From IMG/VR virus record IMGVR_UViG_2880412407_000006: DNA of 50,384 bases; one strand, given 5' to 3'. Position numbers: made by a program. The DNA comes from a virus. Lineage: Duplodnaviria > Heunggongvirae > Uroviricota > Caudoviricetes. Positions 12,001 through 18,000 of this stretch are shown piece after piece (the stretch's first letter is position 1; each line of letters starts with the position of its first letter).

Positions 12001-15000
12001 GTGTTCTTGCCAGAGAGCTGGTTGCCAGTGGCGATTTATACAACTCCGGCTACGGGTTATTTCCGTCTGAACAGGCACGTAAGGACTGGATAAAGGCCCG
12101 CAAAAAGATGTCGAAAGCAGCAGTGAAAAAAAAGAGCGACCCGGACCTGGTTTATTCATTACCAGACGGAGAAATACGCCGCTACGACAGGCGCCTGAAT
12201 ATAATCTGTCGCGAGTGCCGGAAGAGCGAAGCTATGCAGCGTGTACTGGCTTTCTATCAGGGTAATTTTCAGGAGGTAGCGCAGTGAGTGCACCGGCAAC
12301 CATTCTTGATATGTGCTGTGGCAGTCGCATGTTCTGGTTCGATAAGAATGACGACCGGGCGATATTTAGCGATATCAGAAAGGAAGAGCACACATTGTGT
12401 GATGGACGACGCCTGATTATCAGTCCTGATCTGATAGCTGATTTTCGTGCACTACCATTTGCAGACGCATCTTTTTCGATGGTTATATTCGATCCTCCGC
12501 ATCTTGAGCGTGTTGGTGATAACGCCAGGATGGGAAAGAAATATGGACGGCTGAATAAAGATACCTGGCGTGATGATTTGCGGCAGGGATTTAAAGAAGC
12601 CTTTCGTGTGTTGCGTCCATACGGCGTTCTGATTTTTAAATGGAATGAAACGCAAATACCTGTTCGCCAGATATTGGCACTGACCGACAGAAAACCTGTT
12701 ATCGGTCAACGAACAGGAAAAAACGATAAAACCCACTGGATTATTTTTATGAAATAGGCATCCAGTGAGTAGGTTAGTAAGGTTACAGATACGTATATCT
12801 GAATAATTAAATTCAGTTCTGTAAATAAAATTTAATCCTTAACCGGAGGGATTTCTGCACCCTCAGAACATCAGGAGGCCGCCCGAAAGGGCGGAACAGA
12901 TAATGCTTACGTTGAAACATTTTATCGACATACCAACATGGTTAGCCGTCATTGCTTTTGTTAAAATACACATCCACTTTTCTGTGCAATGTTTAACCAC
13001 TGGTCATATCAAATGGCATTCATGCGAACCATGATATAGAATCATGGCTTGAGAGAGTCGATGAAAGCGCAACTATGGTATGAGAGACATTGATGTAAGA
13101 AAGGCTGTGCATGCCAAGATTCTGAGAGATCATCATAAAGATCCTGACACCCTAATCATTGATGAGTTTACGATGAATCTAGGGGCTAGCAGAGCTGATA
13201 TAGCAGTGATCAATGGGCTTATACATGGTTATGAGTTGAAGAGCAAGAGTGATAACTTGCTCAGATTACCAGCGCAGGTGCAACATTACTCATCAGTGAT
13301 GGATAAAGTAACTTTGGTTGTCTCTGATTGCCATCTTTATGATGCTTTAAGCATAGTTCCATCATGGTGGGGGATAAAGCAAGTTACGCAAGGTGCACGG
13401 CAAGGTATCCATTTAAAAACAATTCGAACTAGCAAGTTGAATCCACAAGTGGACAAACTTTCCTTAACAATGCTTCTTTGGAAAGATGAATTGCTTTCCC
13501 TATTAAGTGATGTAGGGGAGCTACAGAATTTGAAAAATAAACCTAAACGCGTCTTATGGTCAAAACTCGCCAATAGTATGGATGTTGGCGAGCTTCGTGA
13601 AGCTGTTCGAGTTAAACTTAAAGCCCGTAAAGAGTGGCGAGTTGCTCAACAACCTTAGTTATGTGATGGTTTTGCCCAATCCTACGCCATACCTCTGGGC
13701 TACCAAATTTATAGTTACCAGAGGGATTGGCTTTGTAGGCTTGATACTCGTTTGCATAATATTCTATGTCTCTATCTCCCGCACAGAATGTAGGCCCTGA
13801 ATATTCTCGATGAGCAAGAATATCCTCACTATGTTTACCATATTGTTCATAACCAAAGCGATTAGCTACTCTTCCTCGAAATACCCAAAAGTCATTATCT
13901 CCAGAGTATCTGACGCTGGCAGATACGCTAGGGAATCGCGTCGAAAGCCTATTAAAGTCGGGGTGCTGTACTCCATAATCACTATAAATCACATTTCTGG
14001 CAAGTTCTTTTCTATTCATTAAACTCTGCCATAAAATCCACTCGATTCGAGGTTGAGAATATAGACCAACAGAAATATCACTGAGATCTGTAGGAAATGA
14101 ACCCCCAGAAAGAATCACTTTTCTGTATTCATTGAGGTGCGCCAGATTGTTTATCAATCCCATTGCCAAAGTATATAGTTCGCCGGAATTAATTTTATCC
14201 TCGGTTAACTCATCTCTTAAGTCAATAATTATATCAATATTTGATAAAGGAATTCCCAGATGATTAATGTAATGCGTTATTAATTGTGGGTTAACCAGAT
14301 CTAACGTGGTTAATCTCAAGCATATTTCATTCTGCATTAATTCATCAATCGCTCTTTTATAGTTAGATGGGCGAGTTGGTGAACTGACAGGAATAACTCT
14401 TATCCCCATATCTCTAACTTGATTAACCGCATTTATTATAGGGTAATGATCTTCAGGAGAAATAAAATGCTCTTCAATTAATAATCCATCAATATAAACA
14501 CCTTGCATATCTGAGCAAGATTTTGAGACTTTCTTTCCGAACTCTATAAGAGTCTCGTTATAACTCTTTAAGGCAATACCTGAATCAGGGTCAATTGGCA
14601 CTGGTTCAATTTCGAGTAATGGCAAAATTTTTGATTTCTTTTCAATGGATAGCTGCGATAAAGCTGATAACTCAGAACGTTTCGCTTTCAGAATAGGAAT
14701 ATATGAAATTGTCATGTTAATACCTTATACAGAATCAATTAACAATTAATGGTTCTTCGGACATTGAAATTTATATCGCAAAAATTGGCAAACTCTCCTC
14801 GACTACTCACTTGTGGGTATCCTGGCGTAAAAGGAATGACTTGGCAATACCCGGTGTGATCATAAGTCATTGAAAATGATCATTTTTATCAGTCTTTCTT
14901 CCATGATGAATGCTAATGCCATTTGATTTGTTGAGGTGAAAACTGTTAAAAATCAAAACGATGTAATTGAAATGAACGTTCGGTAGCATTCACGCTTTAA

Positions 15001-18000
15001 ATGTTTCTTTTGTGCTGATTGGATGAATTTGGGTCACTTATGATGAGAGATGTTGCAGGAAAAGAAGTTGGCATTGATCTATTGGATAGTTAGAATTGCT
15101 GCGGGTGCTTGAGGCTATCTGCCTCAGGCATGAACACCAAAAGGCAGATAGAGAAAAGCCCCAGTTAACATTACGCGTCCGGCAAGACGCTTAACATTAA
15201 TCTGAGGCCAATTTCATGCTTTGCACATGTAGGTTAGCTGATCCTACCCACGTAATATGGACACAGGCCTAAGCGAGGTTCTGGTTTTCAAATTGTTCCG
15301 GACTGAGGCCGCCACACCAACTGTGCCGCCGCCACCGATTGTAATCACATTCGATATAATTAAACACCGTTGCCCGCATTATTTCCCGGCTGATAAAGTG
15401 TTCTCCATGGATACATTCCACTTTCAGCGAATGAAAGAAGCTTTCCACGCAGGCATTATCGTAGCAGCAACCTTTTGCGCTCATACTTCCACGCAGATTA
15501 TGCCGCTTCAGTTGCGCCTGATAATCTGCTGAACAGTACTGGCCTCCACGGTCCGTGTGAACGATAACGTTCCGGGGCCTCTTACGCCGCCACAGCGCCA
15601 TCTGCAGGGCATCGCAGGCCAGTTGCGCCGTCATGCGTGGCGACATTGACCAGCCAATAACGGCACGTGACCACAGGTCAATGACCACTGCCAGATACAG
15701 CCAGCCTTCATCTGTACGTAAGTACGTGATGTCTCCTGCCCACTTCTGGTTCGGGCCACTGGCGTAAAAATCCTGCTCCAACAGATTTTCTGACACAGGC
15801 AGGCCGTGTGCGCGGTAGCTGACCGGGCTGAACTTCCGGGAGGCCTTTGCCCTCAGTCCCTGACGGCGCAGGCTTGCCGCCACGGTTTTTACGTTAAAGG
15901 GGTAACCCTGAGCACGCAGTTCATCCGTCAGGCGTGGGGCACCGTAACGCTGTTTTGACCGGGTAAAAGCCGCGAGGACAACGCTGTCGCAGTGTTGGCG
16001 GAACTGCTGACGCGTGCTTATCCTTGTCCGCCGCTGACACCACGTATACCAGCCGCTGCGGGCCACCCGGAGCACGCGGCACATTGCTTTGATGCTGAAC
16101 TCAGCCTGATGTTTTTCAATAAAGACATACTTCATTTCAGGCGCTTCGCGAAGTATGTCGCGGCCTTTTGGAGGATAGCCAGCTCTTCATCCCGTTCTGC
16201 CAGCTGGCGTTTGAGACGTGCAATCTCGGTAGACATCTCCAGTTCACGTTCAGAAGACGTCTGCTGATTTTGCTGTTTACTGCGCCAGTTGTAGAGCTGT
16301 GATTCATACAGGCTGAGTTCACGGGCTGCGGCAGTAACACCGATGCGTTCAGCAAGCTTCAGGGCTTCACTGCGAAATTCAGGCGAATGCTGTTTACGGG
16401 GTTTTTTACTGGTTGATACTGTTTTTGTCATGTGAGTCACCTCTGACTGAGAGTTTACTCACTTAGCCGCGTGTCCACTATTGCTGGGTAAGATCAAGCC
16501 TCTTACGTGCCGAAAGGCAAGGAGAAGCAGGCTATGAAGCAGCAAAAGGCGATGTTAATCGCCCTGATCGTCATCTGTTTAACCGTCATAGTGACGGCAC
16601 TGGTAACGAGGAAAGACCTCTGCGAGGTACGAATCCGAACCGGCCAGACGGAGGTCGCTGTCTTCGTAGCCTACGAACCTGAGGAGTAAGAGACCCGGCG
16701 GGGGCGAAATCCCCCGCCACCTCTGATGTGTCAGGCATCCTCAACGCACCCGCACTTAACCTACTTCGGCGGTTTTTTTTCACGTACTGTGGTTGTGAAT
16801 ACGATTGGTATTAGGATATGCTAACAACATTAGCTTGACTAATTTTGTATTGACTTGATTTTTGTTAAAGAACAGGACGGAGAAGTAAGGGGGGCACCCA
16901 ATGAGCTACGCACTAAAAAAACACCCGCGATTGACTATTCCCCCTCGCGATAAAAGCGTTGTGGCAGCTCCGCGCCCGGCTATCGATGAAAATTGCACTC
17001 ATCGTGAGCAGGTGAAAAATGCTTTCGATTTCGGTTTTTCTCGTTACGAGAAGGCAATGGAAGAACTTTCAAAAGTGTAATGATGGGTATTGTGCTCTAT
17101 GGCTGAGATTGTTGAAGGAGTGCATTACCTTACGGTTGATGATCTTGTTGAAATCAATCGTTCCCTAATTGAATTACAGACGCCAGATGAGCTCGTTGGT
17201 GTTCTGAGTCCAGATAACTTAAGTTCTTCTCAGGCCCGTCCCAGCATGGTTCGATGGTATGAACAGACTAATGACATGTTTGTACTGGCATCGGTATTGA
17301 TTGAAAGTCTGATTCAGAATCATCCGTTTGCTAATGCGAACAAACGAACAGCTATGATGGCTGGTTACGTCTTCTTGTTGTTGAATGGCTATGAATTAAC
17401 AGCACCAGGCGATGAAATCGTGGAAATGGCAGAGGGACTGGCCTGCAAAACCTATACTCGAGAAGATCTCGAGAACTGGTTGTGTTATTGGTCTCGCGCG
17501 TATGACAGCCGGGAATTATGTAAAACAGGCGCAACTATTGTTTTGTATGAAACTATCAAGTTTAAAATGGAACAGCAAAACTAAAGGTGCTTCCAATGAA
17601 AACCCGCTTCGGCGGGTTTTTTGTTGTTTATTTTCGGTGAGTATGATGCATCTGGTTGTACTGATGTGGTTGGCTGATTCTGTTATTCAGGTGGCTTATT
17701 GCTGTTGATCGGTATGTCTTCACGGCTAGAATCGAGGCTCTTAAGTAGCGCGCAGGGAGAAGAGGGATGGACCCCGAAGGGGAAGAGCTATTTATCTGGA
17801 AGGATTCTGAAGATGAAAATCGAAGAATTGCGTGAAATTTTTAGTGAAAATGGCCTCTATGCTGTGCGCGTTGAGAATGGGAAAGTTGTCTACACAACGT
17901 TAATCCCTGATGATCATGTAATTTTATCTATCGAGGCATTCATTGAATACCTTGAAAGGCTCGGTTTCAAGGTAGTTCGCGAATGAGTTATAATTCGTAA

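Follow-up and report, generated by a model that had tools for sequence, protein, structure and literature searches.

An AT-rich prophage cassette with a convergent, overlapping sce7726-beta gene pair: a candidate anti-phage module related to gop-beta-cII and PD-lambda-2

The stretch of DNA analysed here (IMG/VR record IMGVR_UViG_2880412407_000006; Caudoviricetes; 50,384 nucleotides, nt; hereafter the window) carries at 12760-15238 its lowest-GC segment. The guanine-plus-cytosine content (GC) is 0.385 here, whereas the window as a whole averages 0.511 and either flank about 0.50, and a value as low is reached by only 0.5% of stretches of this length. An earlier reading made without database searches (the sequence-only reading) had singled out this segment as AT-rich and had placed in it two convergent open reading frames (ORFs) of 192 and 365 amino acids (aa) with a 41-nt overlap at their 3' ends, and both the composition and the gene layout are as it described. 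The two genes (Table 1) encode a protein of the sce7726 family and a protein of the beta family, and together with their 5' regions they constitute what we call the cassette. A 100% identical copy is found in the chromosome of Escherichia coli O121 RM8352, within a Rac-like prophage. The DNA common to related Rac-like phages (H17 and H19 coverage) ends at approximately 12900-12935 and positions 15091-15238 are part of a hok/sok leader common to many lambdoid phages, the cassette-specific DNA being roughly 12.9-15.09 kb. The 5' side of the sce7726 gene (12758-13079) has a GC of 0.398.

Table 1. Features of the cassette and of the DNA adjoining it (positions refer to the window)
Feature	Position	Strand	Remarks
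AT-rich 5' region of sce7726-family gene, presumed promoter region	12935..13079	+	approximate left end of cassette-specific DNA
sce7726-family / P4 cII-like protein, 192 aa	13080..13658	+	predicted MmcB-like PD-(D/E)xK core and C-terminal helical part
Dual-coding 3' overlap, 41 nt	13618..13658	both strands	sce7726 aa 180-192 and beta aa 353-365
Beta-family protein, 365 aa	13618..14715	-	predicted (beta/alpha)8 TIM barrel and C-terminal helices, invariant Asp/Arg/His set
AT-rich 5' region of beta gene, presumed promoter region	14716..15090	-	GC 0.352; no gop-like or other conserved gene
Small class I S-adenosylmethionine (SAM) methyltransferase, 157 aa	12284-12757		PADLOC MTase_II 1.5e-71, orphan-MTase 2.2e-49
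sok antitoxin RNA match	15103-15273		Rfam, 80.9 bits
IS3	15239-16496		starts TGATCCTACCCA...
hokD coding sequence	16534-16689		
59-aa ORF	16901-17080		followed by the Doc-family toxin
Doc (death-on-curing) family toxin	17090-17584		

The 192-aa protein matches the NCBIfam sce7726 model (NF033832) over positions 1-183 of 184 (191.1 bits, cut-off 70, E 1.7e-56), in agreement with a family resemblance that the sequence-only reading had tentatively offered, and an identical protein (WP_001204666.1) is named 'sce7726 family protein' by the annotation pipeline PGAP. It further matches the PADLOC 'cll' model (2.4e-28) and shares 28% identity with cII of phage P4 (BLASTP, E 2e-17), a protein called MmcB-like with a probability of 99.8% (HHpred; Rousset 2022, Table S3). 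An AlphaFold2 (AF2) model (predicted local distance difference test score, pLDDT, 94; predicted template modelling score, pTM, 0.89) has the canonical alpha-beta-beta-beta-alpha-beta core, with the nuclease core in aa 1 to ~120 and a C-terminal helical part in aa ~125-185. The residues E29, D40, E52 and K54 lie on three strands of this core, are invariant in 59 homologues and are kept in P4 cII, so that the E / D / ExK arrangement and the PD-(D/E)xK fold proposed from the sequence find their counterpart in both the conservation and the model. Core fold and E...D...ExK arrangement are common to the MmcB-like and restriction-endonuclease-like PD-(D/E)xK nucleases (SPO1766 3dnx, NucS and the nuclease domain of Can2), and we consequently regard the protein as having a predicted MmcB-like PD-(D/E)xK nuclease fold with an intact predicted active site. 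Sequence searches detected no solved structure for either the sce7726 or the beta family.

The 365-aa protein, annotated as 'beta family protein' by PGAP, matches Pfam PF14350 (Beta_protein) along model positions 1-341 of 342 (178.3 bits, gathering threshold 27, E 3.8e-52) and, over its full length, the PADLOC PD-Lambda-2_C models (PDLC03983, 1.8e-41; PDLC03984, 1.7e-38). Its identity to P4 beta is 23% across the full length (BLASTP, E 1e-8), and we assign it to a subfamily distant from P4 beta because the PADLOC 'beta' hidden Markov model covers only aa 4-40 (E 2e-4). Membership of the sce7725 family, the label loosely attached to this protein by the sequence-only reading, was rejected, as the corresponding NCBIfam model (NF033831) gives it 12.3 bits (cut-off 60, E 0.1) over no more than the first 35 residues; nine beta-type partners taken from a range of loci (P4 beta included) were likewise without a match to this model, and judging from these scores beta would be a different, or very distant, partner family relative to sce7725. 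In an alignment of 115 sequences with less than 50% mutual identity (P4 beta included) D165, D246 and H351 are invariant, and E15, D76, R134, R223, R240, Y247, R269, Y270, Q291, D314 and H350 are conserved in at least 90% of the members. The protein is predicted to form a (beta/alpha)8 TIM barrel, and its conserved polar set is what one would expect of an enzyme or of a protein that binds a specific ligand, and not of a passive antitoxin. Members of the family occur in many phyla (4301 representatives at 50% identity), and no domain fusions were encountered among the best 150 of these representatives, all of which are single-domain.

As both proteins carry PGAP names and are homologous to P4 beta/cII and to PD-lambda-2 C, the opinion of the sequence-only reading that no characterised system could be recognised in the segment has to be abandoned. 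In P4, gop and beta form one operon to which cII is convergent; gop is toxic without beta, which neutralises it, the three genes together confer protection against lambda and P1, and they are non-essential (PMC9122126). The cell-death activity of the system is triggered by the phage accessory gene orf184 (bioRxiv 10.1101/2023.04.06.535777). PD-lambda-2, an abortive-infection (Abi) system published as three genes without sce7726, consists of a HigB-like A, an Xre-helix-turn-helix (HTH)/M78-peptidase B and a beta-like C, of which B is toxic and neutralised by A, and C is needed for defence and dispensable for toxin neutralisation (PMC9519451). On the mechanism of these proteins the literature that could be searched yielded nothing beyond three experimental papers, and in none of it is a mechanism assigned to beta or to cII/sce7726.

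The cassette resembles gop-beta-cII (Ghisotti 1990; Rousset 2022; PADLOC/DefenseFinder gop_beta_cll) in its homologous, convergent beta and cII genes and in its character of non-essential cargo on a mobile element. It differs from it by the absence of gop (a 133-aa toxin with two transmembrane segments), by a sce7726 protein that is devoid of the C-terminal extension of P4 cII (264 aa), and by its 41-nt overlap, whereas beta and cII of P4 are free of overlap, with 27 nt between their stop codons. A hidden gop-like gene was considered and rejected: tblastn with P4 gop gave a best match in the window of E 0.54 at an unrelated place, phmmer recovered gop in none of 124 related loci, and the ORFs upstream of beta measure 40-43 aa, with none above 43 aa; moreover, the small ORFs and the DNA of both AT-rich flanks show no conservation in distant two-gene relatives, and PGAP places no gene in the 5' region of beta in any copy. 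With PD-lambda-2 the cassette has in common the C component (full-length model match); the HigB-like A and the Xre-HTH/M78-peptidase B are absent from its ORFs and PGAP annotation, and the annotation of the cassette shows nothing like the A gene that loci of the PD-lambda-2 type carry ~1.2 kb upstream of beta. The sce7725/sce7726 gene pair of NCBIfam, in turn, shares sce7726 with the cassette, in which the partner is beta and not sce7725.

We assembled 80 loci seeded with sce7726 (one genome per species) from Proteobacteria, Firmicutes, Melainabacteria/Cyanobacteria, Patescibacteria, Acidobacteria, Nitrospirae, Chloroflexi, Gemmatimonadetes and Elusimicrobia, and observed a beta gene in 72 of the 78 that could be evaluated. 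Seeding with beta gave the same picture, as sce7726 accompanied it in all 44 viral contig loci (many of them near-identical E. coli copies), and in 16 of 17 plasmid records (with Rhodococcus, Agrobacterium, Rhizobium and Acinetobacter among the carriers of the pair) PGAP annotates a 'sce7726 family protein' at the beta match itself. Co-occurrence in other genomes, which the sequence-only reading had named as a check on its proposal, is thus seen in about 120 loci from many phyla, and the beta and sce7726 genes are near-obligate partners. Furthermore, when 87 loci are compared in pairs, the identity between their sce7726 proteins correlates with that between their beta proteins (Pearson r = 0.84), as expected for a jointly inherited unit.

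The same loci disclose how the pair relates to the published systems. A PD-Lambda-2_B protein lies directly upstream of beta in 19 of the 72 paired loci (with matches such as 4e-162 and 7e-140), preceded in turn by a PD-Lambda-2_A/HigB or a DUF6932 protein, and in these complete PD-lambda-2 operons (L047, L060, L061, L076 and L084:6001-9138 being examples) a convergent, 3'-overlapping sce7726 is always present; a Sinorhizobium plasmid (NZ_CP121661; L136:2498-5801) has a PD-lambda-2 operon plus sce7726 in the same arrangement (PGAP). No co-oriented gene is found within 150 bp upstream of beta in 42 of the 72 loci, and the HigB/Xre-peptidase pair also occurs alone. The architecture is a modular one, in which a conserved core of convergent beta and sce7726 genes is found with or without a toxin module at its front.

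Departures of two kinds from the pair were seen among the sce7726 loci. Four Melainabacteria/Obscuribacterales loci (L073:3329-6195, L075:5498-8367, L081 and L083:6001-8885) encode a longer sce7726 homologue (~245-276 aa), with beta replaced by a convergent gene for a ~712-aa protein that overlaps it in three of the four (not in L081); this protein matched no family, and a Ser/Thr-kinase-like gene adjoins. Xenorhabdus koppenhoeferi (L013:6001-7810) has sce7726 without beta, and the gene is succeeded by a protein-kinase-like fragment and then a PP2C-phosphatase-like ORF in a tandem arrangement.

The geometry of the two genes is the most striking finding. Convergence holds for every one of the 72 paired genome loci, with an overlap (median 47 nt) in 70, and both features are present in 43 of the 44 viral loci; overall, about 97% of the pairs overlap, and a single rearranged locus makes the only exception to convergence. 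Other convergent neighbours in the same loci, called with the same ORF caller, overlap in 10 of 63 cases; since in convergent genes the stop codons alone set the overlap, the measure is independent of start-codon choice. Of 92 loci, 87 have an overlap length equal to 2 modulo 3 (binomial test against a random phase, 2e-35). In 82 of 90 loci, profile alignment gives a DNA span of exactly 46 nt that begins with the codon for alignment position 181 of sce7726 and ends with the codon for beta H351 (13620-13622, a Lys as in most homologues, and 13663-13665, respectively, in the window). Hence, the conserved C-terminal parts of the two proteins are written on opposite strands of one segment of fixed length, and this segment has suffered no frame-changing insertion or deletion since the common ancestor. 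Recent shared ancestry is an unlikely explanation of the phase statistics, given the breadth of phyla. Co-inheritance of the genes is guaranteed by such an overlap, and its conservation in a locked phase from phylum to phylum makes antisense cross-regulation through it plausible. A different geometry was noted in six loci (L015-L018, L028 and L059), where beta is mostly 353-357 aa long (near the 355 aa of P4 beta), the C-terminal codon spacing is 85-86 nt where it can be scored instead of 46, and the genes overlap by 4-11 nt or are separated by gaps of 14-39 nt; these may represent the lineage closest to the P4 arrangement.

Natural disruptions of the cassette inform on the dependence of sce7726 on beta. 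In the pig isolates E. coli PEC209 (L129, NZ_CM168015: 1966524-1968397) and PEC240 (H73) an IS1 element splits beta and leaves the sce7726 protein identical and intact; beta is likewise truncated beside an intact sce7726 in one viral contig (L115), and Acinetobacter pNDM plasmids retain sce7726 with a mere fragment of beta (aa 103-364). In A. pittii pNDM-AP_882 (L135, NZ_CP014478: 67189-70603 and 78831-79589) PD-lambda-2 B is followed by IS30 and blaNDM-1, with the beta fragment and the intact sce7726 lying ~10 kb beyond B, and the blaNDM-1 resistance region appears to have disrupted an Acinetobacter PD-lambda-2 locus. Cells consequently tolerate sce7726 without beta, which argues that sce7726 is no constitutive toxin in need of beta, and argues against beta as its essential antitoxin or as a modifier for self-protection. 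A role for beta as activator or sensor fits this tolerance; silencing of the AT-rich locus would be an alternative explanation for it. As to the insertions themselves, the cassette has been hit repeatedly by IS1 elements, and in phage Rac-SA53 (L002:5094-5859) an IS1 lies 166 bp upstream of sce7726.

Within E. coli the pair is present in 93 of 5426 complete genomes, as against more than 4000 that hold its flanks. All of these copies lie on chromosomes, with identities of at least 97.9%, and they are found in unrelated serotypes and pathotypes (O121:H19, O26:H11, O111:H8, O55:H7, O27:H7, enterotoxigenic E. coli (ETEC) and avian pathogenic E. coli (APEC)). Most Rac-like prophages are devoid of the pair, and sister Rac-like phages hold other small genes between DUF977/LygF and hok, for which reason we consider the position a variable cargo slot. 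The patchy spread across serotypes, set against the commonness of the flanks, argues together with the AT-rich composition that the cassette is horizontally moving cargo; the sequence-only reading had likewise called it a cargo cassette. The same reading had drawn attention to the methyltransferase gene directly upstream; a functional link to it was rejected, since each occurs independently of the other: copies of the cassette with 99% identity in APEC-O117H42 and phage Rac-SA53 are not accompanied by the methyltransferase, and the methyltransferase, variably present among Rac-like prophages, is found without the cassette in PhiR42_1.

The interpretation we prefer, and to which we give about an even chance of being right, is that the cassette would be a stand-alone core of the gop-beta-cII/PD-lambda-2 family, carried by the prophage as anti-phage cargo, with sce7726 as a latent nuclease effector and beta as an enzyme-like sensor or regulator. 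The module would make the lysogen resistant to other phages, probably through abortive infection. As effector, the sce7726 nuclease would be inactive alone; beta would sense a phage cue, which might be a phage protein (the case reported for gop-beta-cII) or else a phosphorylated ligand or a nucleic acid occupying the barrel pocket, and would license the nuclease upon infection. The overlap would enforce the co-inheritance of the two genes, and convergent transcription through it would probably couple their expression. Of the defence or abortive-infection module suggested by the sequence-only reading, what stands is thus an expectation grounded in homology to validated systems.

Several points weigh against this interpretation. 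The defence role of the two-gene form is extrapolated from the phenotypes of its relatives, and the component with demonstrated toxicity in both validated relatives is gop or PD-lambda-2 B, and not cII/sce7726. The co-occurrence and phase statistics ignore the phylogenetic kinship among the loci. For the proposed antisense coupling, RNA folding at the overlap is better than that of shuffled sequences by little (z of about -2.6 for 146 nt and of about -0.4 to -0.8 for 111 nt), and the evidence from promoters and terminators is weak as well, since scans of the cassette returned counts at chance level (a weak sigma-70-like site at 13013-13042 being no better than chance). Furthermore, the PD-lambda-2 system of ECOR42 (229385-232009) was cloned as a fragment (228989-232396; Vassallo 2022 supplement, PMC9519451) that reaches 396 bp beyond the beta stop codon, and yet it defended; as 396 bp are too short for a gene of ~580 bp, the clone would lack an intact sce7726 if the locus has one. 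This suggests that sce7726 can be dispensable for PD-lambda-2 defence, provided that the ECOR42 locus has the gene, a presence that we take solely from the statistics of the beta-seeded loci, the top 120 hits of a homology search having included no E. coli protein.

More tentatively, we put forward a bolder version as a possibility: the convergent beta and sce7726 genes may form an ancient, self-sufficient immune core of two enzymes, in which a TIM-barrel enzyme whose substrate is a nucleotide or a nucleic acid would control, or cooperate with, the MmcB-like nuclease, gop and the HigB/Xre-peptidase genes would be add-ons, and the overlap would serve as a device of functional coupling and not just of compaction. 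If it were true, the published three-gene descriptions of gop-beta-cII and PD-lambda-2 would mis-assign the core and miss a component. Should the pair alone defend, the real conserved core of both systems would have been identified and the roles of their components would be reassigned, with beta as an enzyme-like sensor or regulator instead of a mere antitoxin and cII/sce7726 as the nuclease effector.

A reversal of these roles, which we judge unlikely, would make beta the catalytic TIM-barrel effector, destroying or modifying a nucleotide, a cofactor or nucleic acid, and sce7726 a DNA-binding sensor or accessory protein. The enzyme-like Asp/Arg/His set kept invariant across 115 very diverse members of a very large family (4301 cluster representatives) speaks for it, as do the requirement of the beta-like C for PD-lambda-2 defence (PMC9519451) and the defence conferred by a clone that was probably without intact sce7726. 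However, a pure sensor would have no need of the complete, invariant nuclease motif of sce7726, beta alone is not reported as toxic in P4, where it neutralises gop (PMC9122126), and the near-obligate pairing implies that both proteins contribute.

It seems improbable to us that the pair acts by restriction-modification (R-M)-like or two-step DNA targeting, with beta marking DNA (by TGT/DpdA-like or glycosylase-like chemistry) and the MmcB-like nuclease cutting unmarked or marked DNA. Type II R-M systems with convergent genes do resemble the cassette in combining a PD-(D/E)xK nuclease with a convergent partner on mobile AT-rich DNA, but in those systems the partner is a methyltransferase, whereas in the cassette it is a predicted TIM barrel whose loss is tolerated, and the adjoining methyltransferase is unlinked. 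We hold in equally low regard the notion of an addiction or stabilisation module (toxin-antitoxin-like) that would maintain the prophage without any role in phage defence: hok/sok and Phd/Doc-type modules do adjoin the cassette, P4 gop and beta act as a toxin-antitoxin pair (PMC9122126) and the pair is carried on plasmids and prophages, yet sce7726 persists intact after beta loss, the relatives that were tested gave phage resistance (PMC9122126, PMC9519451) and sister phages hold unrelated cargo in the same slot. A function in the phage life cycle (e.g. lysogeny regulation) instead of in conflict, as the name of P4 cII and the database label 'regulatory protein' of some homologues might indicate, is very improbable for a pair that occurs widely beyond phages (in the chromosomes and plasmids of many phyla), keeps an invariant nuclease motif, is non-essential in P4 (PMC9122126) and is missing from most Rac-like prophages.

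With respect to the anti-phage core that we favour, the names of both proteins (given by automated annotation) and the existence of relatives in two validated defence systems were already known. New are the recognition of two genes without a toxin as a common and self-contained architecture, the overlooked fourth gene (sce7726) in PD-lambda-2 operons, the enzyme-like nature of beta and the deep conservation of the phase-locked antiparallel overlap. An antiparallel overlap with phase and spacing fixed across phyla offers a tractable model in which a role in linkage could be told apart from one in regulation. Moreover, the prophage that carries the cassette is found in Shiga-toxigenic E. coli of the O121, O26 and O111 groups, which makes prophage-borne phage resistance relevant to phage typing and biocontrol.

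The surroundings of the cassette are those of a Rac-like prophage, and in the RM8352 copy PGAP annotates recT/recE, kilR, ydaT, the replication genes ydaU/ydaV, DUF1627, DUF977 and the class I SAM methyltransferase upstream, and IS3, hokD, the 59-aa ORF and the Doc-family toxin downstream. No Rfam family was detected inside the cassette, the sole match being that to sok in the adjoining hok leader; further downstream, a weak rsmX-like match (17533-17622), whose 34.9 bits fall short of the gathering score of 56, is probably due to chance. The IS3 element is inserted inside the hok/sok regulatory leader, and the hokD coding sequence is thereby separated from it by ~1.3 kb. The 59-aa ORF and the Doc gene that follows it probably constitute a toxin-antitoxin pair of the Phd/Doc type.

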